Origin: an uncultured Myxococcales bacterium
GTDB lineage: Bacteria > Myxococcota_A > Polyangia > Fen-1088
Direction: 5' to 3'
DNA length: 64,000 bases
Assembly: GCA_964589215.1 (NCBI GenBank)
Contig: CAZPUH010000492.1
Location: forward strand, 10,221-74,220
The translations under genes and the position numbers were made by a program. The notes under the pieces were generated by a model. It searched no databases. It was not told the DNA's origin and was given only the letters and a program-made list of their open reading frames with translations. Positions 4,379 to 61,399 of this stretch are shown piece by piece (the first letter of the stretch is position 1; each line of letters opens with the position of its first letter).

Positions 4379-4389
4379 GATTCTACGCG
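4379..4389 (-). promoter_or_regulatory. class I motif variant (CGCGTAGAATC)
   Basis: One mismatch to the 11-mer. Its TAG is the stop codon of 4383..4607. No start codon lies within 10 nt downstream. Confidence 0.35.
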
Positions 4390-4607
4390 CCAGGAGATGC
4401 CGGCGACCACCACTCGACATCGTCTCTCGTCGCAACGAACCTGCAGCCGCGCGGCATCAGCGCCCGCGCGCCATCTGGTCCGGTGGTGAGCATTCGCGCG
4501 CGGCTCGGTCTCAGCGCGACATCGAAGCCCACGGTGCGCCACCCCCATGATCTGGTTTCCCAAAACCCATCTCGGCGGCGCCGGATGGTCCAGAACGACG
4601 GCGTCAT
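4383..4607 (-). CDS. hypothetical Trp/Arg-rich small protein
   Basis: 74 aa, MTPSFWTIRRRRDGFWETRSWGW... ATGA overlap with the upstream stop at 4604. GC3 is high. Confidence 0.45.
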   Translation of the reverse strand: MTPSFWTIRRRRDGFWETRSWGWRTVGFDVALRPSRARMLTTGPDGARALMPRGCRFVATRDDVEWWSPASPGA

Positions 4608-5239
4608 GCCGGCGCTGGATTGATCAGCGCCAGAATGGCGCCCGCGGCCTGAGCCCGTGTCGCGATCGCCGATGGCGACTGGTCGCCGCCGTTCGCCGCC
4701 CGGGCCAAGTCGACGCAATAGCGCACCAGGTCGACCATCGCGATCTCAATCAGATGCTGCGTTCCGCCCGCCGTGTAGGCGCGCGCGGAGAGCTCGCGCA
4801 GGAAGCGCGCGCGCGGACCCAGCGGACTGCCATTCCGCGCCTCTGCGCCGGGCCGAGCGAAATCCTCGACCTTCCAGGCGACCTGGATGCCGTACCGGGC
4901 ATAGATCACGGTCTTGATGGCCTCCAGCTTCCGTCCGTCGTACACCGCCGACGTGGACGCCATGGTGCTCTGCGACCCCTCCGGGCGCTTCACCTCCACC
5001 AGCTTGGTTTCGGCGTTGAACGACCAGACGATGTCGCGCGGCTCTGTCATCCAGCCCGCGTCGTAGGACAGCAGGCAAACGAAGGCCCGCAGATCAGGAT
5101 CGGCCTTCCAATCTTTCTCCGGCTCGGCGGGCGCCGCTGGGGTGGCACCCGGCTCGATCAGCGCGGCGGCGCGGCCCGTCGGCGCGGGCTCGTCGGTCAG
5201 CGGGGGTCGAAACTTGCCGCGTTTCTTCGGCACGGTCAC
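4604..5239 (-). CDS. hypothetical protein
   Basis: 211 aa from GTG 5239, with a GTGA overlap on the upstream stop at 5236. The 5' part of the track ORF overlaps the previous gene. Confidence 0.55.
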   Translation of the reverse strand: MTVPKKRGKFRPPLTDEPAPTGRAAALIEPGATPAAPAEPEKDWKADPDLRAFVCLLSYDAGWMTEPRDIVWSFNAETKLVEVKRPEGSQSTMASTSAVYDGRKLEAIKTVIYARYGIQVAWKVEDFARPGAEARNGSPLGPRARFLRELSARAYTAGGTQHLIEIAMVDLVRYCVDLARAANGGDQSPSAIATRAQAAGAILALINPAPA

Positions 5240-5577
5240 GAGGTGCCTCGAAAGCCTGCCCGGATGATTCGATTGATCGATTCGCCCGCTGCGTAGCCCA
5301 TCGCGCGCATGTGGGCTTTCGCCGCCTCGTTCGCATCGCGCGTCTTCGCTACCAGGTTGTTCACGACGAGAGGATCGGCACCATCGAGAATCGCCTGGGC
5401 CCGGAACGCCTCGAGCTCCGGCACGAAGTCCGCCGGCAACGGTCCCGGACCGATCCACGTCAGGGACGCGTGCCAGCGGTCGAGTCCTTTCAGATCTCGC
5501 CAGGCAACACAGGCCGCGGTGATGTCGTCGAAGACGCGCTCCTCCTGCGCGTAGCCGTAAATCAGCTTCCAGGCCAT
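5236..5577 (-). CDS. hypothetical protein
   Basis: 113 aa, MAWKLIYGYAQEE... The class I motif ends 7 nt upstream of the ATG. Confidence 0.65.
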   Translation of the reverse strand: MAWKLIYGYAQEERVFDDITAACVAWRDLKGLDRWHASLTWIGPGPLPADFVPELEAFRAQAILDGADPLVVNNLVAKTRDANEAAKAHMRAMGYAAGESINRIIRAGFRGTS

Positions 5578-5583
5578 GTCCGA

Positions 5584-5594
5584 GATACTACGCG
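5584..5594 (-). promoter_or_regulatory. class I promoter-like motif CGCGTAGTATC
   Basis: Exact 11-mer. TAGTAT ends 7 nt before ATG 5577. Its TAG is the stop codon of 5588..6529. Confidence 0.6.
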
Positions 5595-6529
5595 CCCAGC
5601 CCGGCCGTGGTCGGCTTGACCTCGCCGCCGCTCGCCACGGTCGCCGGCGCCCCCCATTCCGGCAGCCAGCTGACCATCACCTCGCGGTCGTGCGGACGGT
5701 TTGGCGGGTGCATGTACTCGACCGTTCGCACCACCTCGCCGGCGGCGTTCTTCACCTGCCAGATGAACGGCGCCAGGACGTCGACGGTCTGCCCGTCCAG
5801 ATCCTTCGAGTCGTCCCCCTCGCGCACGTCTCTGGTGGCGACCAGCCGTTTCATCAGCCGCGGCGTGGCGCGCCGTTTGAAATCGACCATCCCTCGCTGG
5901 GCGGCCGCGTTGGTGGCGTAGCTCATTTCGGTTCTGACGATGCGCTCCGCCCGCCAGCGCTGCCCCTCGAACAGGCCGTGCAGTGGGTTGGGATCGAGCA
6001 GGCGATCCACGGCCTCGTCCACGGTCTCGGCCTGCACCATCGACTGCGCGAGCCCGTTCCGGATCGCGTTCAGCGCCTGGGGCCCGTAGAGCTTGGAGCT
6101 GCGCCTGAAGCGATCGAGCAGGGTGGGCGCGATCTCCGGATAGACGCCGCGCACCACCGCCAGCTGGGTCGCCTGGATCACCGGCGTCATGCGGCCCATC
6201 GCACCCTCGACCTTGCCGATCATGTGCGCGACCTGGCGGGCGCCGGTGTTGGCGGCGAGCTCGCCCGTCTGTTCGATGTGCCGCCGGAGCGGTTCCTCCA
6301 TGTCCTTGATCGCGCTCGTCACCTGGGCCAGCACCGCCCGCAAATGCACCACGCTGAAGTTGTCGGCGCCCGCGGTCACCTGCAACAGGCGCAGGCGCTT
6401 GGCCAGCTCCTCGCGCGCCTGAACATAGATCGGCTTGAGCCGGCCCACCGCCCGGACGTCGGTCAGCCCAGCCAGTTGGGCGCGCTGCAAGTCAACAACC
6501 TGGCGGATGAGCGGGAGCGGAGACGGCAC
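5588..6529 (-). CDS. head morphogenesis protein, SPP1 gp7 / Mu F family
   Basis: 313 aa with the family-typical QRWRAERIVRTEMSYATNAA segment. Lies downstream of the portal. GTG start with AGGA upstream. Confidence 0.8.
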   Translation of the reverse strand: MPSPLPLIRQVVDLQRAQLAGLTDVRAVGRLKPIYVQAREELAKRLRLLQVTAGADNFSVVHLRAVLAQVTSAIKDMEEPLRRHIEQTGELAANTGARQVAHMIGKVEGAMGRMTPVIQATQLAVVRGVYPEIAPTLLDRFRRSSKLYGPQALNAIRNGLAQSMVQAETVDEAVDRLLDPNPLHGLFEGQRWRAERIVRTEMSYATNAAAQRGMVDFKRRATPRLMKRLVATRDVREGDDSKDLDGQTVDVLAPFIWQVKNAAGEVVRTVEYMHPPNRPHDREVMVSWLPEWGAPATVASGGEVKPTTAGLGA

Positions 6530-6538: not shown

Positions 6539-6685
6539 CTACATCGGAAGAAGTGCCAGCAGCCGCCGGCCCCTTTCCGTGACTTGGGCTCCGGAGATGC
6601 ACGGGCCTCCTGGAGGGGACGGAGCGCGGCGTCCCGCGCTCACGATGGCCTTTCGGCTCCACCCAATCCGGCTGGCTGCTGGCAC
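6539..6685 (-). CDS. possible 48-aa leaderless ORF, or the 5' UTR of the Mu-F-like gene
   Basis: GTG 6685 lies 7 nt after the TAGTAT of motif 6692..6702. The ORF is open to TAG 6539. Its composition is not convincing. Confidence 0.25.
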   Translation of the reverse strand: MPAASRIGWSRKAIVSAGRRAPSPPGGPCISGAQVTERGRRLLALLPM

Positions 6686-6691
6686 GCCGGA

Positions 6692-9222: not shown

Positions 9223-10944
9223 TCACGGCCGCCCGCCGACCGCGGCCGCCCGCTCCAACTCGCTTTCGTAGGTCCCCAGCTGGTCGGCTGCGGCCTGCTT
9301 CGCCTCGGCCTCCGCCTTCGCCACCTCACCCTCGACGTCCTGCACGCCGTAGAACGGCGCCACCCGGCGTGCCGCCGTCGCCCGGGTGATGAACAGCGCC
9401 GCCTGGGCCTTCGCCGCGTTCTGGATCACCTGGCCCTTGTCGGCCTCGGTCGGCGGGAACCATGGGCCCCACAGGATGCTGACGTAGCCCCCCTCGCCCA
9501 GCGTGTACGGCTCCAGAGATTCATCGCCGGTGTCGGGGTCCTTCTTGCGCCGGAGCGGCAGATCGAACTGGACCACACCGATCCGTGGGTTGCCGTCCTC
9601 GTCCGGCGGCAGCTGACGTGGCGGCTGGCTCAGGAACTTTTGCGCCATGAAGACCACGATCTCCATCAGCGCCTCGATCGCCTCGCCGTACTGCTCGCGC
9701 AGGTCACCGGCCTTGGCCAGCATCGGCGCAAACCGGAGCTCGAGCGCCTCCGCGCTCTGCGCGGCCGCCATTGTTTCGTCGTTCGGAATCACCACCCCCG
9801 TAATCGTGTCCGTGTTCGCCTGCAGCTTGGTCGACAGCTCCAGCCCGGTGGTGACGCCGGCGCCTGACATCTCCATGTACTTGGCGCTCCCCTGCAGGCC
9901 GGTCTCGATGCCGTAGCGGGAACCTTTCTGCAAACCCTGTTGCTGCGCGACCTGGTTCACCGCGTGCGGATCGGTCGACGTCACGACGGTGGGGTCCATG
10001 TTTCCGAGCGTCGAATAAGCCGCCTGCGACAGGATGCGGTCGTCGGTGTCGATCGACTGGTAGGCGCCGTCGCAATCCGACTGCCCGTCCTCGGTCCCCT
10101 CCTCTTCGACAGCAGTGTTCAGGATCCATACGCCAGGGAAGCGGCCGAGATTGTGTTGAACCGCCAGCCCTTCTTCCGGAACCCACGACGCTGCTGGGTT
10201 CGCGATCGCGTCGTCGAACGCGACCTCCTTGTAAATGATGTCGCTCTTCTCGGTGATGATCCGCCGACACAGGTAATCGACCATCTCCGTCCCGATGATC
10301 TCGCCCTTGTCGTTGACCTTGTTCCGCTCGCGCACCGTCCGATACATGATCAGCAGGCCCGCCAACGAGCGATCCCGCGGGTCCTTCCAGACGGGCGTGC
10401 AGAACTTCGAGTTGTGCACCTCAAACGACCAGCGCCCCTCCCGCAGGTGAACGGTCATCGCCACCGATCCGATGCCGCCACCCAGGTTCCGTGCCGCACG
10501 CATCTTCGACCAGAACTTCGCCTTCTTGCGCACCGCCTCGAGGAAGGACGTCGTGTCCTCGTCGCCGTCGACCACGATCTGCGGCTTGCTCCGTTCGTTG
10601 AAGAGCAGGTTGGTGAACCGCTCGGTGGTCACCTTCGCCCGCCGCGTCGGCGCCGTCGGCCGCTTGTCCCTGACGTCGAGTTCTGGCCCGCCGCCGGTGG
10701 GAACCGTGCCACTCGGGTAGACGGCTTCGGCGGAGATCGTCTCCTTCGCCCGGGCCGGCATGTCGAACCAGTCGGTCTCTTGGTGGTCGTACTCCCGGCA
10801 GGTCAGAAACGCGTGCTTCCGATCGAGCGCTTTGAATCGCTCGGTCTCGTGGAAGACCGCCGTCCTCTGCAGGTGCTGGATGACCTGGTCGTCGGTGGGC
10901 TTGAAGGGTGCCGGCGCCGGCCGGCCATCAACGGTGGTGCTCAC
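9223..10944 (-). CDS. portal protein (putative)
   Basis: 573 aa, upstream of the Mu-F-like, scaffold and capsid genes. GTG start lies 7 nt after a TAGGCT hexamer. The N-terminus carries RPAPAPFK. Confidence 0.6.
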   Translation of the reverse strand: MSTTVDGRPAPAPFKPTDDQVIQHLQRTAVFHETERFKALDRKHAFLTCREYDHQETDWFDMPARAKETISAEAVYPSGTVPTGGGPELDVRDKRPTAPTRRAKVTTERFTNLLFNERSKPQIVVDGDEDTTSFLEAVRKKAKFWSKMRAARNLGGGIGSVAMTVHLREGRWSFEVHNSKFCTPVWKDPRDRSLAGLLIMYRTVRERNKVNDKGEIIGTEMVDYLCRRIITEKSDIIYKEVAFDDAIANPAASWVPEEGLAVQHNLGRFPGVWILNTAVEEEGTEDGQSDCDGAYQSIDTDDRILSQAAYSTLGNMDPTVVTSTDPHAVNQVAQQQGLQKGSRYGIETGLQGSAKYMEMSGAGVTTGLELSTKLQANTDTITGVVIPNDETMAAAQSAEALELRFAPMLAKAGDLREQYGEAIEALMEIVVFMAQKFLSQPPRQLPPDEDGNPRIGVVQFDLPLRRKKDPDTGDESLEPYTLGEGGYVSILWGPWFPPTEADKGQVIQNAAKAQAALFITRATAARRVAPFYGVQDVEGEVAKAEAEAKQAAADQLGTYESELERAAAVGGRP

Positions 10945-13862: not shown

Positions 13863-14906
13863 CTACGAAGCGAGGAACGTCTGGGCGGCCGCCGCCAGCG
13901 TCCGGTCGCTGACGTCGCCGAACCACGCGTTGCTGAGGCGCGTGTCGTTGTCGTTGCCGCGCTGCCAGGTCAGATACTCCGTCGCCGCGTTGTAGGCGGC
14001 CCAGGCCGTGCCGCGAACGCCGGGGGCATCGTTGCCGCGACCGGACTCGAACAGCTGGGAGACCGTCTCGAACACGCGCGATTCGCGCTCCTTGGTCGTC
14101 GTGAGCGTCGAGCCGGCCGAGACGAAGTCACGCGACATGAGCGCGTCGAAGCTGTCGCCCTCGACGGCCGACTGAGCGGCCGCGATCGCCGCGTCGCGCT
14201 TCGCCTTGACGCGCCGGAACACGCGGTCGACGAAGGTCCGGAGCGAAGCCTCGGTGACGTTGACACTGGCCAGTGCGCGGAACACCTCGGCCGCTTTCTC
14301 GAAGTCGTGGTCAACGCGATCGATCGTCTCTTGCACGAGCTTCAGTGCGTCGCCGCTCTTCGCGGTGTGCCGGATCTTGATCGTCGCGGTGCGACGGTCG
14401 GCGATCGACGCGCTCAGCGTGTTCTGGCAGACGACGCGAATCGGAGTCAGACCGACGTGCAGGGCAAGCGAGCCGTCGTGACCGTTCGCGACCAGCAGGT
14501 ACTTGGCGACGCGGTCACCAGCCTTCGGAACGATGACGGAGTCCTCGCGAGCGATCTTCGCGAGCATCCAGACGCGCGCGCCCTTGCGAAGAGAACCGGC
14601 CGTCTCGATGCTCACGGCGCGTTGCTCGACGAACGGCGCGAAGAACTGAAACGCGTCGGCGTTCTGGACCGGACGGTAACCGCAACCGACCGTGCCGAGC
14701 ACGCGGTTATCCGAGCTCCGGATCGTCGCGTAGCGGTCGACCGCGGTGCCGTCCGCCAGCTGCAGCTGTTCGAGCCGGACCGACCAGTCGAGACCGGCGA
14801 GCTTGAGCGCCTCGGCGATCGACTCCGGCGCGGTCTGCAAAGCAGTGCCGAGACCGTGCCAGGGGGTCTCGCCGACAAACATCATGTTCTCGATCTCGTG
14901 TGCCAT
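13863..14906 (-). CDS. DUF932 / phage-plasmid TIGR03299-like protein
   Basis: The N-terminus MAHEIENMMFVGETPWHGLG is characteristic of the family. 347 aa. GAGGAG SD. Confidence 0.75.
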   Translation of the reverse strand: MAHEIENMMFVGETPWHGLGTALQTAPESIAEALKLAGLDWSVRLEQLQLADGTAVDRYATIRSSDNRVLGTVGCGYRPVQNADAFQFFAPFVEQRAVSIETAGSLRKGARVWMLAKIAREDSVIVPKAGDRVAKYLLVANGHDGSLALHVGLTPIRVVCQNTLSASIADRRTATIKIRHTAKSGDALKLVQETIDRVDHDFEKAAEVFRALASVNVTEASLRTFVDRVFRRVKAKRDAAIAAAQSAVEGDSFDALMSRDFVSAGSTLTTTKERESRVFETVSQLFESGRGNDAPGVRGTAWAAYNAATEYLTWQRGNDNDTRLSNAWFGDVSDRTLAAAAQTFLAS

Positions 14907-14972: not shown

Positions 14973-15000
14973 AGTCTAGCTTCTCCGTAATTGTTGTAAA
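14973..15000 (-). promoter_or_regulatory. class III sigma70-like promoter TTTACA-N16-TAGACT
   Basis: AT-rich island. Shares ATTTACAACAaTTACGGA with the copies at 24027 and 49710. An approximately 65-nt leader runs to the SD of the DUF932 gene. Confidence 0.6.
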
Positions 15001-17682: not shown

Positions 17683-17693
17683 GATACTACGCG
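17683..17693 (-). promoter_or_regulatory. class I promoter-like motif CGCGTAGTATC
   Basis: Exact 11-mer. TAGTAT ends 9 nt before ATG 17674. Confidence 0.6.
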
Positions 17694-17700: not shown

Positions 17701-18453
17701 CTACCGGCGGGTGAAGTTCCGGCGCAGCGGCACCCCGCCCCCCTTAGGTGACCACTTCGCCAGCGCATCGCGACTAAACCACCACGCCATCACGCCGTCG
17801 CTCGTGGCGAAGACGGGGTAGTTCTTCACCTCCTCCTTGAACCGGCACCAGTGGCACGGGCAGGTCGACTCGTGCCCCTCCCATTCGCCGCCCGGAAAGA
17901 TCCAGGCGCCGTTGTTCATTTCGACCTCGAGCACCGGCAGGCCGACGTCCGGATCCGCCTTGTTCGAACCGGTCGTGAAGGACTCGACCTTCGGCCAGTA
18001 GGGCAGGTCGGCCTCCTTCACCCAATCGACCAGCGCCTCCTGGTATCCGTTGTTCTCGACCTGAATCCACTGCGGACCCAGCTCCTGATCGACGATGCCG
18101 ATCTGGCGTGCGGTCTCGGGCGAGCTCCAGGCGCCGAACCGGACATCCAGCAGCCCGCGCCGGTTGTTCGCCATCAGCCCCACGGTGACGATCGCCACGC
18201 CGGGCCGGCGCTTGCCGGACAGGTCGACCCCCGTGTAACAGAGCGGCTTGCGGGCCCGGAGCTCGCCGGCCGTCAGGCCGTGCTGGATGCATTTCTCGAA
18301 GCTGGGGAACTTCAGGTCGCCCGGCGCGACCGCCTGCATCAGGTAGCCCTTTTGGAAGGTCGCCATGTCGATCATGGCGTCCTGGAGCTTCTGCTTTCCG
18401 TGCTTCAACTCCCAGATCGGAAGAGACGGCAGCCGGATCGAGTGGTTCGGCAC
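17701..18453 (-). CDS. terL: terminase large subunit, nuclease (C-terminal) half
   Basis: RNase-H-like terminase nuclease pattern: YTGVDLSGKRRPGVAIVTV, IQVENNGYQEALVDWV, FTTGSNKADPDVGLPVLEVEM, TSDGVMAWWFSRDA. There is no ATPase domain in this ORF. Confidence 0.7.
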   Translation of the reverse strand: MPNHSIRLPSLPIWELKHGKQKLQDAMIDMATFQKGYLMQAVAPGDLKFPSFEKCIQHGLTAGELRARKPLCYTGVDLSGKRRPGVAIVTVGLMANNRRGLLDVRFGAWSSPETARQIGIVDQELGPQWIQVENNGYQEALVDWVKEADLPYWPKVESFTTGSNKADPDVGLPVLEVEMNNGAWIFPGGEWEGHESTCPCHWCRFKEEVKNYPVFATSDGVMAWWFSRDALAKWSPKGGGVPLRRNFTRR

Positions 18454-18456: not shown

Positions 18457-19956
18457 CTACCCCGTCGTGAACGCGGGCGGCATCGGTGCCAAGGAATCGG
18501 CCAGCGCAATCGGCGGCACCACCGCGCCCGCCACGCCCGCGGGGACCGCCAGCGGCGAGACCGGCAGCAGCAATGGCGGGACCCGCGCCTCCACGACGCC
18601 CCACGCCACGTTGCGCCACCACGCGGCAACGTAGGCATCCTTTCTGAGCCCGTAGTCGGGCATCCAGGCGTGCTCGGCAGCGTCCAGGGCGACGATTACA
18701 GGCGCGTTCGCCGGCGCCCCGCTGTCATCCCCCTCGAGGACCATGTTCCGCAGCCTGCCGCCCCGGCCATCGCGAACCGCGAGCACCCAGCTGGCGGCCG
18801 CGCGCGCCGCCTGGCGGAAGTCCGCCGCCCAGGCGTCGACCGACCCGAAGGCTTCGACCGCCGCGGCCGTGAACGCCGGGCCAGGTCCGGCGGCGCCCGC
18901 GCCGCGCGCCAGCCCCTCGAAGTAGAGTTCGTGCAGGACGACCGCGTTGTGGACGGCCGGCAGGCGCCGGCGGGCGGCATCCGCGGGGCTGGGCCCCGCC
19001 TCCCGGCCCAGGAATTCGCCCACGGTGAAGTCCAGCGCAGTGAACGGCACTCGGCGGCCCACCCGTTTGATCGGCGCGGGTCCGTAGGCCATCCCCTGGC
19101 CCACCAGCATGTCCTCAACCGCCAGGAGCTTGGCCAGCGCGGCGGGCCGGTCGGCGTAGGTCTCCCGCCACCGCGAGCCGGGGTCCAGCCAGCAGGCGAA
19201 CGTCTCCGCCCAGTCCTCGTCGGGGTGCTTCTGGCCGTAGTGCGCCAACGGCGCGCTGGCGTTCTGCGCGATGTAGGACACGTAGGCATCGCTGGCGGCC
19301 GGGTCGGGCGTGAAGTCGTCCTGGTAGGGCGCCGCGAAGTTCCCGAAGGTCTCCCCCCACTTGATCCGCTGGTACAGCAGGTAGGCGTAGCCCAGGGCGT
19401 GTCCGAGCTCGTGACGCAGGATGCGCAGGACGTCGTCGACCGAGTACCGCAGGAAGTTGTCGTTCACCAGCGCCCAAAGGGCGTCGCTCGCCAGGTACCA
19501 GGGCAGGTTGATCGAGACCGCCTGATCGGCCGTCCAGAAGTCGGAGTCGCCCACGTACCAGGACGGCCGCCAGGTGATGCCGCGATCCTGCAGCTCCCCC
19601 TCCACCTGGGCGATGGCTTCGGCCAGCTTTCCGGTCGGCTCGAGCAACGGCAGGTCCCGCACCGGGGTGACCAGCAGCTGGTGGGCTTCCGCCGCTGGCA
19701 GCCCGCCGGTTGACCGCGCGCTGGCGCCAGCCACCGCGTCGAGCTCGGCCATCTCAACGACGTAGCGCCGATAGAGCTCCAGATGGTCGGCTAGCACCCG
19801 GTCGGAGATCCCGACCAGACCGCCCGTCAGGAGCGCCGTGAAATCACGCGGCGCGGCCGGTGCCGGCGCCTGCTTTTCCTCGGCGGCCCAGCGGCGCGCC
19901 ATCGCGGGGTGTGTCGCCCACATCCATCTTCGTTGCTTGGCGCTCTGCCATGGCAT
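18457..19956 (-). CDS. zinc metallopeptidase-like (HELGH) domain fused to a Fe/Mn-SOD-like domain
   Basis: RHELGHALGY. C-terminal FGSVDAWAADF...ASWVLAV...LDAAEHAWMPDYGLRKDAYVAAWWRNVAWGVV parallels the SOD pattern FGS.D..F..GSGW.WL..D.WEHAYY..R..Y...W.vvNW. Confidence 0.6.
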   Translation of the reverse strand: MPWQSAKQRRWMWATHPAMARRWAAEEKQAPAPAAPRDFTALLTGGLVGISDRVLADHLELYRRYVVEMAELDAVAGASARSTGGLPAAEAHQLLVTPVRDLPLLEPTGKLAEAIAQVEGELQDRGITWRPSWYVGDSDFWTADQAVSINLPWYLASDALWALVNDNFLRYSVDDVLRILRHELGHALGYAYLLYQRIKWGETFGNFAAPYQDDFTPDPAASDAYVSYIAQNASAPLAHYGQKHPDEDWAETFACWLDPGSRWRETYADRPAALAKLLAVEDMLVGQGMAYGPAPIKRVGRRVPFTALDFTVGEFLGREAGPSPADAARRRLPAVHNAVVLHELYFEGLARGAGAAGPGPAFTAAAVEAFGSVDAWAADFRQAARAAASWVLAVRDGRGGRLRNMVLEGDDSGAPANAPVIVALDAAEHAWMPDYGLRKDAYVAAWWRNVAWGVVEARVPPLLLPVSPLAVPAGVAGAVVPPIALADSLAPMPPAFTTG

Positions 19957-19965: not shown

Positions 19966-19976
19966 GATACTACCGT
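19966..19976 (-). promoter_or_regulatory. class I motif variant (ACGGTAGTATC)
   Basis: Two mismatches in the GC-rich extension. TAGTAT ends 10 nt before ATG 19956. Confidence 0.45.
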
Positions 19977-20199: not shown

Positions 20200-20210
20200 G
20201 ATACTACGCG
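20200..20210 (-). promoter_or_regulatory. class I promoter-like motif CGCGTAGTATC
   Basis: Exact 11-mer. TAGTAT ends 6 nt before ATG 20194. Confidence 0.6.
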
Positions 20211-21463: not shown

Positions 21464-21474
21464 GATACTACGCG
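21464..21474 (-). promoter_or_regulatory. class I promoter-like motif CGCGTAGTATC
   Basis: Exact 11-mer. TAGTAT ends 7 nt before ATG 21457. Its TAG is the stop codon of 21468..22223. Confidence 0.6.
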
Positions 21475-24026: not shown

Positions 24027-24055
24027 AGCTTAGCGCCGTCCGTAAGTGTTGTAAA
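24027..24055 (-). promoter_or_regulatory. class III sigma70-like promoter TTTACA-N17-TAAGCT, leaderless
   Basis: The -10 ends 6 nt before ATG 24020. Shares a 19-nt block with the other two copies. Confidence 0.65.
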
Positions 24056-42874: not shown

Positions 42875-42885
42875 GATACTACGCG
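42875..42885 (-). promoter_or_regulatory. class I promoter-like motif CGCGTAGTATC
   Basis: Exact 11-mer. TAGTAT ends 9 nt before TTG 42866. Confidence 0.55.
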
Positions 42886-46437: not shown

Positions 46438-47483
46438 GGCGGCGTCTCCTCGTCCGTCTGCGGGTTGCCCTTGGCCGGCTTGCGCGTCTTCTTCTCGCGC
46501 TCCAGCGCTTCGATCTCCTCCTGCGTCGGCGCCGCCGCCGCGCGGTCAGCCGCGTCGGGGTCGTCACCTGCGGGCTGGCTTTTGACCTCCGGCTTGGGGG
46601 CCGGCTCCTTGGTCTCCGGCTTCGCGTTCGCCGCGGACTCCGGGCGCTTGATCGGCTCGCGCTTGCCGACCTCTCCGGGGATCGGGGTGGCCGTCATGAT
46701 CTGGGGGAACACCTCGTCGACCGGCTCGCCGTCCTTCACGCGCGTGCCAAGACCGATCAGCACCTCGATGTCCTCGATCGTGACGTCGTCCAGATGCTCA
46801 CGCTCGACCACCGCCAACATACGCTCGACCGACACACCCATCCGCTGGCAGGCCGCGGCGATGTCCTTCCGCTTCTCCGGCATCGATTTGCCCTCGCCGG
46901 CGGCCATCTGTCGGACGCGCACGAAGATCTGATCCACCAGGGCCCGCGGCACGACTCGGAAGATCGCGTTTCGGAGCGCGATCGAGCTGGCCGCATTCTG
47001 GGTGAGGATGATCATGTCCTCGCTGTAGCGGTGACCTTCGGATGTCGTGATCCGGCGCTTCACCTCGGAGATCATGCGGACGTTCCGCTGGACGTCCCAG
47101 CAGATGCCCTGGCACGTCACCGTCGTTTCATCGACGTCCACCGGGCGCGCGGCGGCATGCAGGTTGGTGTACGTCGACGCCACGATTTCGGCCAGACGGA
47201 TCGACGGTCCGATGATGTACTTGATCTTGCCCTTCTCCCGCCGCTTGAGCGTGTACATGCAGCTCTTCGCGACCTCCTGACTGGTGATCGCGATCGAAGT
47301 GGCTTCGCGCACGAACGTGCCGACGCTACGCGGATACCGATGGGCCGCGTCCAGCTGGGCGTCGACCTCGCTCCGATTGAGGGCTGACAGCGTCTGGGTG
47401 TCTGGTCGGATCAGCTGCGCCTCCTCGTCCATCCGCATCAAGTCCGTGTTCACGTCGTCTTCATCGTTCGTCGCCATCGTCAC
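46422..47483 (-). CDS. putative single-strand annealing recombinase
   Basis: 353 aa, immediately downstream of the Cas4-like exonuclease, the classic exo/annealase pairing. I did not recognise a family. Confidence 0.4.
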   Translation of the reverse strand: MTMATNDEDDVNTDLMRMDEEAQLIRPDTQTLSALNRSEVDAQLDAAHRYPRSVGTFVREATSIAITSQEVAKSCMYTLKRREKGKIKYIIGPSIRLAEIVASTYTNLHAAARPVDVDETTVTCQGICWDVQRNVRMISEVKRRITTSEGHRYSEDMIILTQNAASSIALRNAIFRVVPRALVDQIFVRVRQMAAGEGKSMPEKRKDIAAACQRMGVSVERMLAVVEREHLDDVTIEDIEVLIGLGTRVKDGEPVDEVFPQIMTATPIPGEVGKREPIKRPESAANAKPETKEPAPKPEVKSQPAGDDPDAADRAAAAPTQEEIEALEREKKTRKPAKGNPQTDEETPPWLKK

Positions 47484-48640
47484 TCCTTGACCCGCAGGTC
47501 CATCAGCTTTTCGTTGGTCTCGGTCGTCACCGCTCCGGCCGCCTCAAGGGCCTCGGCAACAGCTTCGATCGCTTTCTTCTTCCCACCCTTTGGCGTCTTC
47601 GCCGCCACCGCGTCGTCGACCGCCGACATCCCGATCTTCATGCAGCCCAGGATTTCGTCTTCTGTCAGGTGCTCGCGAAGCACTGGCAGCCCCAGCTTCG
47701 GTGATACTACGCGCCGGGGGCTGTCAATGAAGCGCAGCTCCCGGCCGTCACCGTCCGGCAGCGCGCCGCCGGCCGCGCGCACCCGCTTCTGGACGGCCTC
47801 GTGCAGGCTCTTGCCCAGCCGCTCGACCGACTTCCAGCGCCGCCAGATAGAGACCACCTCGCTGTCCGACAGGTCGCCCAAGCCAGCCTCGACCTTCGCC
47901 GCCATGGCCTCGCCGCCGAACACCAGGACGTCCCGCCGCGCGGTCGTCGCGAGCGCCGGGCAGGCCGCCGCGCGCGGGCAGATCGAGCAGTGGCCCCCCG
48001 GGTGGTAGACGCCGTCCCACTGCACGACGCGCTCCCGAACCTCGTCCAGCCACTGCCAAAGATTCTCTCGCGTCATCCGCTCTACGCGCTCGGTCTGGCC
48101 GGACCGCATCCAGCCGACGAACCCGTCCACCTTCTCGACTGACGGGTAGTTTCCCAGCACCAGCGCCGAGTACGCGTGCACTTGATGCTGGTAGTCCCGG
48201 TCCATCCGGCCGAACTTCCAGTCACCGTGGGCCGCCATCAGCCGCGCCACCGCCAGCGCGTCGATGTGCCCGCTCAGCTCCAGGACGACTCCGGGCGCGA
48301 TCTCGAAGCTCGCCTCCAGGTAGACCTCGCTCTGGGCCGGCCGCAGCCACTCGCGCACGGACTTCCAGACCTTCAGCCCGATGAATGCCGTGATCTTTAG
48401 GTCATCGACATCCACCGACCAGCGACGCGCGATCGGTTCCAGATCGACCTCGTAGAGCGTGGTGGCGTCGGCGTCCACCAGCGCCGCCATGACAGCGTGC
48501 CCGGCTGACCCGCCGTCGCCGGCGTCGCTCACCGGGTCGACCAGAACGCCGCCCTCTTGCACCGGACGAGCCGAGCCGGGGCAGGTAAAGGCCGCCGGCA
48601 TCGAGCTCGCCCGAATCCGGAAAACGACGCGCTCGCTCAC
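47480..48640 (-). CDS. PD-(D/E)XK (Cas4/RecB-like) nuclease with 4-Cys cluster
   Basis: GHIDAL...DWKFG, QHQVHAY (QxxxY). Cys pattern is C(19)...C-x2-C-x5-C (HCSICPRAAAC). Confidence 0.65.
   Translation of the reverse strand: MSERVVFRIRASSMPAAFTCPGSARPVQEGGVLVDPVSDAGDGGSAGHAVMAALVDADATTLYEVDLEPIARRWSVDVDDLKITAFIGLKVWKSVREWLRPAQSEVYLEASFEIAPGVVLELSGHIDALAVARLMAAHGDWKFGRMDRDYQHQVHAYSALVLGNYPSVEKVDGFVGWMRSGQTERVERMTRENLWQWLDEVRERVVQWDGVYHPGGHCSICPRAAACPALATTARRDVLVFGGEAMAAKVEAGLGDLSDSEVVSIWRRWKSVERLGKSLHEAVQKRVRAAGGALPDGDGRELRFIDSPRRVVSPKLGLPVLREHLTEDEILGCMKIGMSAVDDAVAAKTPKGGKKKAIEAVAEALEAAGAVTTETNEKLMDLRVKE
47703..47713 (-). promoter_or_regulatory. class I motif copy internal to the nuclease gene
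   Basis: Exact 11-mer (coding SPRRVVSP), 220 nt upstream of recombinase start 47483. No start codon lies within 10 nt. Confidence 0.4.
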
Positions 48641-48957
48641 GACGCCGCCGGGATCTCGAACGCCTTCTGGAGAGTCGCCAGGTGGATCCAGACGTTGCCG
48701 CTGGGTCCCTTCTTTACGGGCGCGGGCCCGCCAACCAACTGCGGAATCGCCACCGTGTCGCCGTCCAGGTGCCGGCGCACGCGGTCATAGATGCTGGTGG
48801 CAGCTCGATTGACGGCGCGGGCGGCGGCGGCCACAGACACGTAACCGTCGCCGTCCATCTTGGCCGCCTCCGCCGCGTCGGGCTTTCGCCCGCGTGGGTT
48901 ACCGCCGCCGTGCTTCTTCTTCCTGATCTTCTTCGGTTTCTTCTGGGGCTTCGCCAT
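48637..48957 (-). CDS. HTH DNA-binding protein with Lys-rich N-terminus
   Basis: MAKPQKKPKKIRKKKHGG...YVSVAAAARAVNRAATSIYDRVRR. The class I motif ends 7 nt upstream. Confidence 0.6.
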   Translation of the reverse strand: MAKPQKKPKKIRKKKHGGGNPRGRKPDAAEAAKMDGDGYVSVAAAARAVNRAATSIYDRVRRHLDGDTVAIPQLVGGPAPVKKGPSGNVWIHLATLQKAFEIPAAS

Positions 48958-48963: not shown

Positions 48964-48974
48964 GATACTACGCG
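48964..48974 (-). promoter_or_regulatory. class I promoter-like motif CGCGTAGTATC
   Basis: Exact 11-mer. TAGTAT ends 7 nt before ATG 48957. Its TAG is the stop codon of 48968..49630. Confidence 0.6.
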
Positions 48975-49630
48975 CGCCGCCCCTCCGAGCCCTCGCCGAG
49001 CATGATGCGGATGTGCGAGACCACCGGATCGCGGCCGACAGCCTCCACGAACTGCCGCAGGATCGAGCGAGCCGTGAGCGGTGGCAGCTTGGCGCGGCGG
49101 GCCAGCGCGGACAAATCGGCGTTCCGCGCCGGGCCCATCGCCGCGCGCACCAGCTTCTGCCCGCGAGGCTCGAGCTTCTTCAGCAGCATGGCCGTGCGGA
49201 TCACGCGCTCTCGCTCGCCGCGCATCCCGATCTCTGGCGCGTCATCAGCGGACGCCGCGAACCGCTCCTCGCTCCGCTCGCCCTCCCCGCCCGTCCACGT
49301 CAGGGACTTCGTCCGGAACAGGTTGCTCGTGTCCTCCTTCGTCCTGCCACCGATCGCTCCGTCTGAAATCGTCAGCACCGTCGCCTGACGACGAAGCGCA
49401 AGCTTCGTCCGGCGGAACGCCGCCGTGCAGGCGACGCTGAACGGCTTGTCGAACGTCCGGTGACCGTACCGCTCCCGCCAATCTGCAGCCACCACGTACG
49501 CGACCTGCAGCGCCTCCTCGCGGTGTTCCCGGCGATATTTGGAGCTCACGTACCTGGCCACCTCGAGCGGCTCGACGGTGATGCCCCTCTTTACGGCCGA
49601 CTTCGAATCGACGACAGTTTCTGACTGCAT
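48968..49630 (-). CDS. sigma-70-family-like (ECF-sized) factor, putative
   Basis: Region-2-like EEALQVAYVVAADWRERYG...FSVACTAAFRRTKLALRRQ. Region-4-like LEPRGQKLVRAAMGPARNADLSALARRAKLPPLTARSILRQ. GAGGAGG SD. Confidence 0.45.
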   Translation of the reverse strand: MQSETVVDSKSAVKRGITVEPLEVARYVSSKYRREHREEALQVAYVVAADWRERYGHRTFDKPFSVACTAAFRRTKLALRRQATVLTISDGAIGGRTKEDTSNLFRTKSLTWTGGEGERSEERFAASADDAPEIGMRGERERVIRTAMLLKKLEPRGQKLVRAAMGPARNADLSALARRAKLPPLTARSILRQFVEAVGRDPVVSHIRIMLGEGSEGRRA

Positions 49631-49659
49631 GCGGACCTCCTCTTGGCGGTGGGGGTTCT

Positions 49660-49701
49660 GAAGAGGAGCGGGGTCGGATTCGTCCGGCCCCGCTCCTCTT
49701 C
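49660..49701 (-). promoter_or_regulatory. 19-bp stem-loop at the predicted 5' end of the sigma-like mRNA
   Basis: GAAGAGGAGCGGGGTCGGA-TTCG-TCCGGCCCCGCTCCTCTTC on the top strand. There is one non-Watson-Crick position. It starts about 8 nt after the class III -10. Confidence 0.5.
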
Positions 49702-49709: not shown

Positions 49710-49738
49710 AGCCTAGCGGCGTCCGTAAGTGTTGTAAA
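49710..49738 (-). promoter_or_regulatory. class III sigma70-like promoter TTTACA-N17-TAGGCT
   Basis: AT-rich island upstream of the sigma-like gene. Shares a 19-nt block with 14973 and 24027. Confidence 0.6.
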
Positions 49739-52508: not shown

Positions 52509-52960
52509 CAGGACGGGCCCTTGGCCTGCAGGACGATCGTCGCGACTCCCGTGCCACCGGAGCCCGTGAACTTGATGCGAATGTACTTGAATTCGTAGAA
52601 GTCGATCGGGATCGGGAATGTCTGCGGCGAACCGGAGGCCGCCGGGGGGCTGGTCCCCAAGGTGTAGGTGCCCCACTTCGCATCCGAAGTCGGATCGTCT
52701 ACCCCCGGCGAGTAGTCGTTGCTGTACTGGATCGACCACGTCCCGCTTGCCGTTCCGGTGGTGCGGACGGCGTACCCGATGACGGTGAGCGTATCGACGC
52801 GGTAGGCGGTGCTCCTGACCGTCCCTCCGATCGTGATCTGCTCTTTGGCGTTGACGCTCGAGACATCGCCGGACCCGACCAGATGGGAAGCATGACCACC
52901 ACCGGTCGCGCACCCGAGCGCTGCGGCCAGACACCACGTGAGAACGGCGACACGGTTCAT
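52508..52960 (-). CDS. lipoprotein-like secreted beta-rich protein
   Basis: MNRVAVLTWCLAAALGCATGG. ATGA overlap with the Skp-like stop. Confidence 0.6.
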   Translation of the reverse strand: MNRVAVLTWCLAAALGCATGGGHASHLVGSGDVSSVNAKEQITIGGTVRSTAYRVDTLTVIGYAVRTTGTASGTWSIQYSNDYSPGVDDPTSDAKWGTYTLGTSPPAASGSPQTFPIPIDFYEFKYIRIKFTGSGGTGVATIVLQAKGPS

Positions 52961-53580
52961 TTCTTCGTCCCTTCCTTGGTGCCCATCTTCGCCGCATCCA
53001 GAGCGGCCTTCAACCTGGCCTCCGCCTCACCCTTTTCCTTCTGCAGCTTGGCGTTTTCCGCACGCAGCTGCTCCTCGTCTTTGCCTTCTCCTGCGTCGAG
53101 TCGGCGAACGATGTCCGCCGTGACGTCCAGCGCAGGAGATACGAACGCCGCCGCCCCACCGACAGGAACGATGGCGGACAGATGTCGCGCTCGTGCAATC
53201 ACCGGGAGGATGCGTTTTACACGGGCGTCGATTTGCTGGTAGTTCGCGTTCGCTCGCTGCTGATCCAGTTGCTGGTACTGCGCCAGAATCTGCTGCTGGT
53301 AGCGCTCCTTTGCCTCAGCTTCCTGGCACGCCTGAGTCTTACCTGCGATCGGCTGTCCCGCTGTCTTGGCGCATGCATCAGCGGCTTTCTTCGCGTCGTC
53401 CGCAGCGCGCCCGATCTCGCCGTTCCATTTGGCCTCGTCAGTCTTCAAAGCATCGGCAGCGGCCTTGCTGTCGGCGCAGTCTGCATGGACCTTCGCGAGA
53501 TCGTAGTAGACGCCCTCCGCTCGAGCGGCAACGGGCAGCAACAGCATGGCGGTGATGAGGAACACGACGATGCGCGGCAT
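52957..53580 (-). CDS. Skp/OmpH-like periplasmic chaperone
   Basis: Signal peptide MPRIVVFLITAMLLLPVAARA/EG, a Q-rich coiled-coil arm, and C-terminal ILPVIARARHLSAIVPVGG...DVTADIVRRLD typical of OmpH. GGAGA SD. Confidence 0.5.
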   Translation of the reverse strand: MPRIVVFLITAMLLLPVAARAEGVYYDLAKVHADCADSKAAADALKTDEAKWNGEIGRAADDAKKAADACAKTAGQPIAGKTQACQEAEAKERYQQQILAQYQQLDQQRANANYQQIDARVKRILPVIARARHLSAIVPVGGAAAFVSPALDVTADIVRRLDAGEGKDEEQLRAENAKLQKEKGEAEARLKAALDAAKMGTKEGTKK

Positions 53581-59316: not shown

Positions 59317-59360
59317 CCCGCCATGTTAGGCGGGGGCCCGACGAGCCCGCCAGAGGGGGG

Positions 59361-60917
59361 CTACGTCAGGGTGGTCATCCCGATCATCCGAACCCGATGG
59401 GCGTAGCCCTTGACGCTGATGTTCACGGTGTCCCCCGTTGTGCCACCCTTGAGCCACAGCGCCCCCTGCCCCGGAGCCGGCCATGGAAGGCGGCCGTTCG
59501 TCAGGCCGCCGACCGCGACCGCGGGAATTGATGCCACGAGCTCCATCGGCCCATAGCCGCTGCTGAACTGCGGCGAGATCCCGCCAGCCGTGGTGTCCGG
59601 ATGGACGTTGTAGTAGCCGGGGGTGGAGCCGACCAGCGCCGCACTGAGGGACACCGAGGCCGTCGTGGGAAAGCCGATCTGGGCCGCCGACGGCGGCGTG
59701 CTGAACGGATCGGCTGCGGCACCCGTGCGGACGACGAAAATGCTGTTTCCGCCCGCGACCGCTGATCCGAAGTAGGTGACGTCGTCCTCCATGATGAGAC
59801 CGGCCCGACGCGTGGTGTTGGCGACGACCATGCCGAAGCCGATGTAGACGGCGCCGGCGGGCGCGACCGTCTGACCGTTCACGGTCATGTTGGCCGTCGG
59901 TTTCCCGGTCGAGAGATTCGGCGGCGTCAGGCTCTCGACGATCGTGATCGGAGACAGAATGCCCGACGTGGAGTTCAAGCTCGGCAGCCTGTTGTGGCGA
60001 CCGCCGACCGCGTAGACGTAATAGATCTTGTTCCACTGGGCAGGTGCCGCCACGGTGAACGGATTCGCTGCGGTGTCTTGAACAACGCCTCCGTTGACGG
60101 AATCCAAGACGCCGTAGAACTCGTGCAGCTCGCCGTCGATCAGCACTCGGTGGAGGCCCGATACTGACATCGTCGAGCTGGCCGAGGCGGGATTCGCGGC
60201 CAGGTCCCACTTGAGTCCGAGTCCCGACACGACGCCGCTCATCGCGGCGAACGGGTACTCCACGCGCCGCCAGGATGCACGCGCCTGCGCGAACGAAGCG
60301 GCGGAGCCGGCCCCCGGTGGCACCCACACGTAGAACAGCGCCAAGGCGCCGACAGGAATCGCCGGCACCACCGGATTCCCCGAAGGTGTGCCCGCGATGA
60401 CCGACAGCGTGGCGGTCGGGGCTGACGTCTTGAAAACGTTCTGCGGCGTGATCGTGCGCGCCACGGGATCGACGAGAATGTTGCGGCTCTGCAGGTCGGT
60501 GTCGACCATCGCGGCCGTCGCCACAATGACGTCGATCCGAGGATTGGTTCCGTCCGGATTCGTGTGGGTGACCGTGCCCACCGGCCAGCGAACCTGCAGA
60601 TATCCGCTGTCGTCAGCGGTCAGCGTGGAATATCCGGGGTACCAAAGCAGGCCGGATCCGGCGCCGATCGTCACCGAGAATCCAGAGGCGCCGGTCAGCG
60701 TGGGTGCCTCTTCGATGCCTGAGATCGGCGTCCCGTTGAACTGAAGCAGATCCGCCGGCCCGCCAGGATTCGGAACATCGGAGTCGAACGATCTCGCCCG
60801 AGACGCTTCCAGGTCCTGACGAGCCTTTGCGGCAAGGTACTGGGCGCGCATCAGGTCGCTCGAGGCCAAGACCTCTCGGGCGTTCCACTTCTCGATTCTC
60901 TCGGTCACTCCGGCCAT
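59361..60917 (-). CDS. tail fibre / receptor-binding-type structural protein (putative)
   Basis: 518 aa, within the baseplate module. A TAGCAT hexamer lies 6 nt upstream of the ATG. Confidence 0.55.
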   Translation of the reverse strand: MAGVTERIEKWNAREVLASSDLMRAQYLAAKARQDLEASRARSFDSDVPNPGGPADLLQFNGTPISGIEEAPTLTGASGFSVTIGAGSGLLWYPGYSTLTADDSGYLQVRWPVGTVTHTNPDGTNPRIDVIVATAAMVDTDLQSRNILVDPVARTITPQNVFKTSAPTATLSVIAGTPSGNPVVPAIPVGALALFYVWVPPGAGSAASFAQARASWRRVEYPFAAMSGVVSGLGLKWDLAANPASASSTMSVSGLHRVLIDGELHEFYGVLDSVNGGVVQDTAANPFTVAAPAQWNKIYYVYAVGGRHNRLPSLNSTSGILSPITIVESLTPPNLSTGKPTANMTVNGQTVAPAGAVYIGFGMVVANTTRRAGLIMEDDVTYFGSAVAGGNSIFVVRTGAAADPFSTPPSAAQIGFPTTASVSLSAALVGSTPGYYNVHPDTTAGGISPQFSSGYGPMELVASIPAVAVGGLTNGRLPWPAPGQGALWLKGGTTGDTVNISVKGYAHRVRMIGMTTLT

Positions 60918-60950
60918 GGGCCGATGCTACAGTGACCCCGCCGCGCGCGT

Positions 60951-61382
60951 CTATCTGGCGGCGCCCGCCACGTTCCCCGTGCCGGAGCCGCCGCATGTCG
61001 TGACCGGAATGCACACCGGGTCGAAGACGTTCCCATCCGGGTTGGGCGCGATGCGACATGGACACCCGGCCGCCTCTCCGCCACGGCCTCCCTCGCCACC
61101 GCTTCCAGCTGCCTGGGCGCCACCGGCGCCGGCATCCATGCCCGACGGCGCGCTCCCGCTGCTCCCGGCACCGCCAGCGCTGAGACTCAGCCCGCGACGT
61201 CCACCGGCAGCTTCGGCGCCCGCTCCGCCGGCCGCCGAGCGACCGGCATCCGAGGAGGACGCGCTAACGTCTCCGCAGCCAGCCGCGCTCAGCGCCAAGA
61301 CCGCCAGGGCCGCCAGAAGCACCACCAGCGCCACCCCCGTACGATTCGGGTTCTTTCGGATCAAATGGTCGATGTCGAGCAT
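60951..61382 (-). CDS. Gly/Ala-rich lipoprotein
   Basis: From ATG 61382: MLDIDHLIRKNPNRTGVALVVLLAALAVLALSAAGC. The class I motif ends 7 nt upstream. Confidence 0.6.
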   Translation of the reverse strand: MLDIDHLIRKNPNRTGVALVVLLAALAVLALSAAGCGDVSASSSDAGRSAAGGAGAEAAGGRRGLSLSAGGAGSSGSAPSGMDAGAGGAQAAGSGGEGGRGGEAAGCPCRIAPNPDGNVFDPVCIPVTTCGGSGTGNVAGAAR

Positions 61383-61388
61383 GGTCGA

Positions 61389-61399
61389 GATACTACGCG
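61389..61399 (-). promoter_or_regulatory. class I promoter-like motif CGCGTAGTATC
   Basis: Exact 11-mer. TAGTAT ends 7 nt before ATG 61382. It lies inside the tail module. Confidence 0.6.

Follow-up and report, generated by a model that had tools for sequence, protein, structure and literature searches.

The question raised by the stretch of DNA considered here is why one and the same sequence of 11 nucleotides should stand, time after time, a few nucleotides ahead of a start codon. The stretch, hereafter the window, comprises 64,000 nucleotides of contig CAZPUH010000492.1 and is judged from its gene content to belong to an uncultured, myovirus-like tailed phage. The element, CGCGTAGTATC in gene orientation, occurs in it in 17 exact copies. 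We shall argue that it is probably a phage-specific promoter that consists of one -10-like element, is read via a phage sigma factor and gives leaderless mRNAs, in which the transcript starts at or next to the start codon. A preliminary description of the window had proposed a phage-specific, -10-like promoter of leaderless mRNAs, and the proposal has since gained support from the spacing, the absence of Shine-Dalgarno (SD) sequences, an excess of ATG starts, the single gene on the + strand, an intragenic copy and the freezing of the element among relatives.

The element and its boundaries

All 17 copies that had been reported were located: sixteen read GATACTACGCG on the + strand of the window and one, at 32059, is the reverse complement. 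Every copy, variants included, points in the direction of the local gene, as had been noted. The exact 11-mer did not occur once in 100 dinucleotide-preserving shuffles. When up to two mismatches are allowed, 29 matches are found against 13 +/- 3 expected, and 17 of the 29 are exact; the gain above chance is the variant at 4379 alone (one mismatch, CGCGTAGAATC), matches with two mismatches being at chance level. No GTAnTATC is found in the window outside this set, of which the degenerate ACGGTAGTATC at 19966 is also a member, so that both of the variants listed earlier exist. The family is therefore essentially all-or-none, with hardly any degenerate copies.

Across the 17 window sites the information content is at background directly outside the 11 bp, on both sides. 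The 5' extension, previously given as a nearly invariant GCGCG, has to be shortened by one base: CGCG alone is invariant, and the base before it is G in ten copies, C in six and A in one. The earlier statement that there is no conserved -35 element is borne out both at the 17 window sites and at 61 sites pooled from the wider family; a weak preference for C or G at motif positions -21 to -17 in the 61 sites was considered as a hidden -35 and is explained by orthologous coding sequence. An N4-like hairpin promoter was rejected as well, since the flanking stems do not exceed those of permuted controls in length (p = 0.29 and 0.69). Read directly, CGCGTAGTATC contains no GGAG, GAGG or AGGA, that is, no SD-like core of the kind described for the cluster K repeats discussed below. 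A search of the literature for the string returned only unrelated primer sequences.

These boundaries bear on the idea, allowed for in the preliminary description, that the copies are part of a dispersed repeat, the end of a mobile element or a homing site with no part in expression. In its favour there is just the high copy number, together with the presence of a LAGLIDADG intein in the gene of the large terminase (TerL). Conservation stops sharply at 11 bp and the flanks carry no information, which effectively refutes a longer repeat; moreover, flanking inverted repeats are lacking, and the positions are orthologous and stable across relatives. We regard this explanation as scarcely credible.

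Spacing to the start codon and the absence of SD sequences

The distance from the final C of the element to the start codon is 6 nt in nine copies, 5 nt in two, 7 nt in one, 8 nt in two and 9 nt in one, in agreement with the earlier count of nine cases with 7 nt after TAGTAT. Of the 17 exact copies, 14 are followed at 5-9 nt by a start codon that opens a coding-like open reading frame (ORF); family-wide, 56 of 61 unique sites have a start codon at this distance. For the hexamer TAGTAT the distance from its end to the start codon is 6-10 nt in 14-15 of the 17 copies, and the 56 family sites are likewise in keeping with the roughly 6-9 nt of leaderless promoters. The claim that the element always stands just upstream of a start codon thus holds for 14 of 17; the copy at 47703 lies inside an exonuclease ORF, that at 6692 precedes a 156-nt leader (the GTG directly after it opens merely a 48-codon ORF with poor coding statistics), and the start after 27101 is ambiguous.

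SD sequences and start codons were compared among independently called genes in nine loci that had been fetched by protein, and the comparison is hence unbiased by the motif search pattern. None of 19 genes behind the element has an SD, against 38 of 112 others (p = 0.002), as had been described for the window and as is expected of leaderless promoters; ATG is the start codon in 18 of the 19 against 81 of the 112 (p = 0.04). The companion claim, that structural genes carry SDs, is not confirmed in that form: GGAG-type SDs are found in about 8 of 18 called non-motif genes between 38.8 and 59.6 kb, a count that includes structural genes without treating them as a class of their own. The geometry appears to be that of a -10 hexamer with the transcript starting at or next to the ATG (the predicted +1). 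If a protein resembling the extracytoplasmic function (ECF) sigma factors read GCGTA as its -10, leaders of 3-6 nt would result.

Since the element stands where an SD would be expected, at 5-9 nt from the start codon, and is found only on the sense strand, at genes that have no SD, it might also act in the RNA, either as an SD-independent signal for translation initiation, in the manner of the start-associated sequences of cluster K mycobacteriophages, or as a processing site at which polycistronic RNA is trimmed to leaderless mRNAs. Two kinds of copy are relevant to this. The first is the sole + strand copy. The most likely start of TerL is ATG 32036, which shares the frame of the 30030 ORF; this leaves a divergent gap of 39 nt between this ATG (TerL-N) and ATG 32076 of the + strand gene, and the motif is the sole element in the gap. 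The + strand gene has good coding statistics and is conserved with its motif in two relatives (L118 and L035). Because co-transcription with any other gene is impossible, it appears to need a promoter of its own, exactly at the motif, and would still need one if the motif acted in RNA. The second lies within a gene, at 47703; L123 has kept it (at 7982), likewise without an adjacent start codon, and in L129 the equivalent of this putative promoter stands directly before the next gene. Because a start-less intragenic copy has been kept in a distant relative, it argues for a transcriptional role, at the level of DNA and independent of an adjacent start codon, rather than a translational one, and the 47703 copy probably serves as an internal promoter from which the next gene (46422-47477), one with an SD, is transcribed. 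The copies at 6692 and 4379 and those of L081 described below also lack a start codon at the usual spacing. An RNA signal is at odds, too, with the lack of anti-SD complementarity and of a GGAG-like core, and it explains neither the resemblance to a -10 hexamer nor the co-occurrence with a sigma-like gene; we hold it to be very unlikely.

Conservation among relatives

A motif scan of relatives had been suggested as a check, and it finds the element there. IMG/VR was scanned for the motif followed by N5-9 and ATG; most of what was obtained were single chance matches, together with several multi-copy contigs of 65-80% DNA identity to the window, including an 87.7-kb genome. The contigs of the 12 homologues of the sigma-like protein described below all carry the element too. 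Pooling gave 61 unique sites, of which those in relatives are partly orthologous and to that extent not independent. The family consensus is CGC[G/C]TA[G/A/C]TATC, and positions 1-3, 5, 6 and 8-11 are invariant but for two copies with T1. CGCGTAGTATC is the form in the window, L123, L134 and other IMG/VR relatives; CGCGTAATATC is that of L125, L128, L129 (five copies and one CACGTAATATC), L130, L132 and L167; L131 has CGCGTACTATC; all three copies of L163 read CGCCTACTATC, with G4 changed to C; and L164, L166 and L081/L035 carry mixed variants. A strict co-variation of motif position 7 with the lineage of the sigma-like protein was considered and rejected on account of these three mixed genomes.

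The element is frozen while its flanks diverge, in relatives with 30-47% protein identity, and in alignments of orthologous sites it is the sole invariant block in diverged DNA. The 3' end of the sigma-like gene contains a copy in every case (in the window that at 48964, whose position is kept in all sigma-like loci), and there it encodes RVIS in relatives and RRA-stop in the window. Because the reading frame differs, the conserved thing at this place appears to be DNA and not peptide. In the exonuclease gene the same motif DNA encodes RVVS. The synteny shared by the contigs of the sigma-like homologues comprises the sigma-like gene, a basic protein of about 100 aa, the exonuclease, further genes, DnaB and a 528-aa ATPase.

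It should be noted that L081, which otherwise uses the G variant, contains two CGCGTACTATC copies (8449 and 9073), both preceding a similar leader of about 25 nt (CCACnTCCGA...AAGGA). These are possibly a leadered sub-class of the same promoter.

A sigma-like protein as candidate reader

The preliminary description had cast suspicion on the product of 48968-49630, a protein of 220 aa (P0001), as the reader of the motif, and the suspicion is strengthened by a sigma-70/ECF-like fold, by hidden Markov model (HMM) matches, weak as they are, and by co-occurrence with the motif. A HMMER search yielded 12 homologues of 31-47% identity, making 13 representatives of the family among 1.8 billion clusters, none of them in cultured phages. 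A word-indexed homologue look-up returned only the protein itself, and tblastn against 50,697 GenBank phage records returned no match. An AlphaFold2 model from the 13 sequences (pLDDT 76) has two confident helical domains, with values above 90 over residues 20-85. Nearly all of the best 50 Foldseek matches in the PDB are sigma factors (SigB, sigma-32, sigma-E, SigH, AlgU, sigma-70), and most of the named matches in BFVD are phage sigma or ECF factors, with Foldseek probabilities up to 0.97-1.0. Sigma70_r2 matches 4 of the 13 homologues weakly (best E = 0.002) and TIGR02937 matches 5 of 13 (E 1e-4 or weaker); P0001 itself has no Pfam or NCBIfam sigma match and does not pass a curated family HMM threshold. 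A conserved DDxxQEAAL aligns with region 2.1-2.2 of RpoE, where the core-binding signature is D-x-x-Q-E-a-f-l, so that a sigma-2 fold with this signature is found in model, fold matches and alignment alike. The modelled protein thus appears to fold like a sigma-70/ECF sigma factor.

The motif is present in all 13 of the sigma-like lineages that were examined. With the 528-aa ATPase as bait, 30 loci were collected from IMG/VR and from metagenome-assembled genomes (MAGs) in GTDB; the two with a sigma-like gene have the motif, in 6 and 3 copies, and the other 28 have neither gene nor motif. From this co-occurrence we infer that the 48968-49630 protein reads the motif. A promoter for a phage-encoded RNA polymerase (RNAP), T7-, N4- or crAss/YonO-like, was considered and set aside: some 60 scanned ORFs contain no RNAP Pfam match, no DxDGD is found in real ORFs, and flanking inverted repeats are not in excess, a result that concerns the window only, about 24 kb of the genome (probably tail genes) lying outside it.

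It has to be asked whether such a protein could instead be a DNA-binding regulator, and the copies its operators, stoperator-like sites or activator boxes rather than core promoters. Many identical, asymmetric sites, oriented with transcription and placed at gene boundaries, are in keeping with this, as is a helix-turn-helix (HTH) in the C-terminal domain of the model. Operators, however, need neither the tight spacing to the start codon nor a -10-like core; the + strand gene leaves no room for a separate promoter; the ORFs scanned include no integrase or repressor family; and the fold matches are sigma factors, not repressors. This explanation is improbable.

Two further observations concern the sigma-like locus. 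The gene is always followed by that of a protein of about 100 aa with a Lys/Arg-rich N-terminus (48637-48957, minus strand; no family match), and this protein invariably begins 6-7 nt behind the copy of the motif that lies within the 3' end of the sigma-like gene; it is a candidate co-factor or anti-sigma factor. Some homologues, namely P0010, P0012 and P0013 (L131, L163 and L164), have an extra C-terminal DUF2924 domain. Their called ORFs continue past the embedded motif into Arg/Ser/Pro-rich sequence, an extension that looks like the gene caller's out-of-frame read-through of the next, leaderless gene.

Host-type promoters in the same genomes

No copy of the motif directly precedes the sigma-like gene. 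Instead, a bipartite promoter, a hairpin and an SD precede it, an arrangement conserved in eight relatives. The 16-mer TTTACAACNNTTACGG has three exact copies in the window, all on the minus strand, each of which completes a host-type promoter of the form TTTACA-N16/17-TAnnCT (class I; Table 1). Relatives keep the -35 and part of the spacer (TTTACAACNNTTACGG), and the interior of the -10 varies, with three positions free: TAGGCT, TAACGT, TAGCGT, TACCGT, TAGGGT, TACGCT, TAAGGT and TAGTGT. This serves as an internal control, since the 11-bp element (class II) changes nowhere but at position 7 and, in a single lineage, position 4. A free -10 interior would be expected of promoters evolving under a housekeeping sigma factor, in contrast to the frozen 11-mer of the same genomes. 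The conserved spacer half, TTACGG, may be an operator. Because the host-type promoter at 24027-24055 has an ATG 6 nt after TAAGCT, it suggests a host capable of translating leaderless mRNAs.

The leader of the sigma-like gene has features of its own. Its hairpin, GAAGAGGAGCGGGG...CCCCGCTCCTCTTC, is a possible translational switch, because the 3' arm is complementary to the downstream SD, AAGAGGAGG. Relatives keep a hairpin and the SD in this leader, with an A-run before their hairpin.

Reading by the phage protein or by the host sigma factor

The main alternative is that the housekeeping sigma of the host itself reads the motif as a strong promoter consisting of a -10 alone, the phage protein having another job, or none, here. 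TAnTAT fits TAnnnT, and in some phyla TANNNT adjoining ORFs drives leaderless genes (PMC12340547). The promoter at 24027-24055 makes it probable that the host copes with leaderless mRNAs, and near-identity of the motif, when the sigma-like proteins are only 30-47% identical, would fit a slowly evolving host reader. A housekeeping sigma, however, needs no exact 11-mer, and near-invariance across 61 sites stands against the free interiors of the host-type -10 hexamers. Nor would it account for the near absence of degenerate copies, for the restriction to one clade (the motif is missing from the 28 related loci without the sigma-like gene) or for the change of G4 to C shared by all three copies of L163. 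We consider reading by the host sigma unlikely, if the most serious of the competing explanations.

Several points nevertheless weigh against a promoter read via the phage protein. The IMG/VR loci were ascertained by a pattern that itself requires N5-9 ATG. The commonest spacing in relatives is 1 nt longer (8 nt from TAnTAT to ATG), which could mean a leader of 1-2 nt instead of none. Part of the co-occurrence is built in, as the sigma-like gene itself carries a motif copy in its 3' end; the 28 loci with neither gene nor motif are, besides, more remotely related and were viewed over 10 kb to each side only. Some genomes (L164, L166 and L081/L035) combine more than one base at position 7, and strict co-evolution at that position is unsupported. 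P0001 has no significant sequence match in Pfam or the PDB, a profile search against PDB sequences giving nothing; the Foldseek matches, though uniform, have weak E-values (0.005-1) and low TM-scores (0.2-0.35), the latter as expected because the two domains are joined by a flexible linker. Finally, a sigma-4-like, HTH-like C-terminal domain is modelled (residues 139-210), yet a -35 is conserved at none of the 61 sites.

A proposed sequence of events

If the phage protein is the reader, expression could proceed as follows. The host RNAP with its normal sigma would transcribe a few genes from TTTACA-N17-TAnnnT promoters, among them the sigma-like gene 48968-49630. The sigma-like protein would then displace the host sigma on the RNAP core and direct the core to the 11-bp element without a -35. 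Initiation at the ATG or a few nt from it, with TAnTAT 6-10 nt before the start, would yield mRNAs without an SD that are translated as leaderless messages, and a minority of copies (47703, 6692, 4379 and two in L081) would drive leadered transcripts. In this way the phage sigma would fire some 20 class II promoters across the replication, packaging, head and tail-fibre modules, and read-through from the copy at 50590 could give the sigma-like gene positive feedback.

The element appears to tolerate being coding sequence, because its TAG serves as the stop codon of the upstream gene at 5588-5590, 21468-21470 and 48968-48970 (exact copies) and at 19970-19972 and 4383-4385 (variants), and the 37792 copy lies in the end of the upstream gene. 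A more far-reaching reading is that a new family of phage sigma factors defines an almost wholly leaderless regulon and couples a sigma switch to a switch in translation initiation. On that reading, middle and late mRNAs would bypass SD-dependent initiation and could so be translated selectively during a shutdown of SD-dependent translation in the host, and the 11-mer would be compact enough to double as coding sequence (RVIS) or as an upstream stop codon. This reading is doubtful at present.

Comparison with known systems

The closest analogue appears to be the set of promoters read by gp36 of phage phiEco32. The middle and late promoters of that phage have a single element, tAATGTAtA, with transcription start sites 6-8 bp downstream; there are six copies, and gp36 is reported to lack region 4 (PMC8948821). 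In the phiEco32-related phage 7-11 a hairpin stands ahead of the sigma gene (PMC8948821). The likeness lies in a divergent phage sigma acting, as predicted here, on the host core, and in a single conserved element in the -10 region, without a -35, at many genomic sites. The differences are that the window element is CGCGTAnTATC, that the sigma-like protein is unrelated by sequence, that it models with a sigma-4-like domain, and that the element is fused to the start codons of leaderless genes, which has not been described for phiEco32, in at least 17 copies as against six.

The late promoters of phage T4 (TATAAATA) are near-invariant, consist of a -10 only and are read by gp55, a truncated sigma dependent on gp33 and on the sliding clamp; the late mRNAs of T4 have leaders with SDs. 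The window resembles them in having a near-invariant, -10-only phage promoter and a predicted reader of the sigma family on the host core, and it differs in its leaderless genes without SDs and in that no equivalents of gp33 or gp45 were identified. In Deinococcus-Thermus and Actinobacteria, TANNNT adjoining ORFs, often with a dispensable -35, serves leaderless genes (PMC12340547; see also PMC3160421). The window shares with these promoters a -10-like hexamer a few nt before the ATG and the absence of an SD. Unlike them (they are degenerate and read by the housekeeping sigma), it has an exact 11-mer, confined to one phage clade, with near-invariant CGCG and C flanks.

Two mycobacteriophage repeats are superficially similar. 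The start-associated sequence of cluster K, which Pope et al. reportedly described in 2011, is said to be a 13-bp repeat with an SD-like GGAG core, thought to be translational. Like the window element it is present in many copies per genome, a few nt upstream of starts and oriented with the gene; the window motif has a -10-like core in place of the SD core, and conserved copies away from starts. The stoperators of cluster A, reportedly described by Brown et al. in 1997, are said to be repressor sites in temperate phages at no fixed distance from start codons. Here too there are many identical asymmetric sites (dozens in stoperators), oriented with transcription and at gene boundaries, but in the window the spacing to the start is tightly constrained, and a repressor or integrase was not found among the scanned ORFs. 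By sequence the element belongs to none of these systems. The window would seem to offer a new example of a known phage strategy, unusual in that a phage-sigma regulon is fused almost completely to start codons.

The phage and its other genes

The GC content across the window is 0.63-0.69, and the coding-like ORFs are nearly all on the minus strand. An exact protein look-up gives 87,962 bp as the length of the longest source contig, the contig available as DNA being a Logan assembly of 79.8 kb. Neither tRNAs nor Rfam families were found anywhere in the window. Megablast of 16 kb of it against known phages gave no match, there is no close relative among 50,697 GenBank phage records, and tblastn with the 528-aa ATPase against GenBank phages gave no match either. 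The matches of DnaB and the portal in phages are too distant to point to one host, and the MAGs with distant relatives of the ATPase are spread over Pseudomonadota, Acidobacteriota, Myxococcota and Planctomycetota. An OmpH-like gene, together with distant portal and fibre matches to phages of Pseudomonadota, does point to a Gram-negative host.

The large terminase apparently occupies two ORFs separated by 11.6 kb. The second, 17701-18453, encodes 250 aa that match the nuclease part (positions 486-697) of the same PHROG profile as TerL. The intein of TerL is not present in the relative L118. Behind the copy at 6692, a structured RNA of about 135 nt (6550-6685, minus strand) extends from the predicted start site, with a minimum free energy of -85 kcal/mol (z = -2.8), multiple stems and a closing stem of about 17 bp; it has no Rfam family. 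Judged from the folding, this RNA ahead of the MuF-like head gene may act as a regulatory leader or be a small RNA.

Table 1. Copies of the element, host-type promoters and genes in the window. The strand is that of the gene served; distances run from the final C of the element to the start codon unless stated otherwise.
Position	Strand	Feature	Start codon	Remarks
61389-61399	-	exact copy	ATG 61382, 6 nt	143-codon ORF, then gene of 518-aa virion protein; orthologous copy in L163
50590-50600	-	exact copy	ATG 50583, 6 nt	103-aa gene; upstream of sigma-like gene
48964-48974	-	exact copy	ATG 48957, 6 nt	106-aa basic protein; overlaps 3' end of sigma-like gene, TAG is its stop
47703-47713	-	exact copy	none adjacent	inside exonuclease ORF; codes RRVVS
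42875-42885	-	exact copy	TTG 42866, 8 nt	DnaB helicase
41218-41228	-	exact copy	ATG 41208, 9 nt	528-aa P-loop ATPase
39604-39614	-	exact copy	ATG 39598, 5 nt	78 aa
37792-37802	-	exact copy	ATG 37785, 6 nt	338 aa; in 3' end of upstream gene; ATGA stop/start overlap
35318-35328	-	exact copy	ATG 35310, 7 nt	91 aa
32059-32069	+	exact copy	ATG 32076, 6 nt	121-aa gene
30006-30016	-	exact copy	ATG 29999, 6 nt	119 aa; orthologous alignment made
27101-27111	-	exact copy	GTG at 2 nt or ATG at 11 nt	63-66 aa
21464-21474	-	exact copy	ATG 21457, 6 nt	DUF4326 protein; TAG is stop of Mom-like gene
20200-20210	-	exact copy	ATG 20194, 5 nt	74 aa
19966-19976	-	degenerate copy, ACGGTAGTATC	ATG 19956, 9 nt	499 aa; TAG is stop of 74-aa gene
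17683-17693	-	exact copy	ATG 17674, 8 nt	137 aa
6692-6702	-	exact copy	GTG 6529	MuF-like gene after structured leader of ~156 nt
5584-5594	-	exact copy	ATG 5577, 6 nt	113 aa; TAG is stop of MuF-like gene
4379-4389	-	one-mismatch copy, CGCGTAGAATC	none adjacent	next gene GTG 4203, leader ~175 nt
49710-49738	-	class I, TTTACA-N17-TAGGCT		upstream of sigma-like gene
24027-24055	-	class I, TTTACAACACTTACGG-N7-TAAGCT	ATG 24020, 6 nt after TAAGCT	leaderless 121-aa gene
14973-15000	-	class I, TTTACAACAATTACGG-N6-TAGACT	ATG 14906	upstream of DUF932 gene; leader with SD GAGGAG
49636-49701	-	leader of sigma-like gene		14-bp hairpin 49660-49701; strong SD AAGAGGAGG 49636-49644
48968-49630	-	sigma-70-family-like (ECF-like) protein, P0001		220 aa; proposed motif reader
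3-1133		major head protein		
5588-6529	-	MuF-like head protein		
9223-10944		portal		
13863-14906	-	DUF932 protein		
17701-18453	-	second terminase ORF		
18457-19956	-	499-aa protein		Fe/Mn superoxide dismutase C-terminal domain and metallopeptidase-like region
21468-22313	-	Mom-like protein		DNA modification
25244-26386		DUF5131 protein		
30030-32036	-	TerL, ATPase part		LAGLIDADG intein
41445-42866	-	DnaB helicase		
47480-48640	-	PD-(D/E)XK exonuclease ORF		
52957-53580		OmpH/Skp-like periplasmic chaperone		
63061-63987		baseplate J		
		fibre-like protein		1673 aa

Implications

For the annotation of this phage family, the motif together with the class I promoter would allow transcription units to be marked from sequence, and gene starts can be corrected, for example that of TerL to 32036 and possibly that of DnaB to 42866. 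If the proposal is true, a promoter of 11 bp that needs no -35 and its sigma factor, about 200 aa long, would form a compact orthogonal pair, whose source is a clade of uncultured, high-GC phages that probably infect Gram-negative soil bacteria. The pair bears on how a protein with sigma-2 and sigma-4 domains works without a -35. Nature would, besides, offer here a phage whose transcription programme is issued almost wholly as leaderless mRNAs, and this bears on how far efficient leaderless translation has spread beyond the Actinobacteria and Deinococcus-Thermus.

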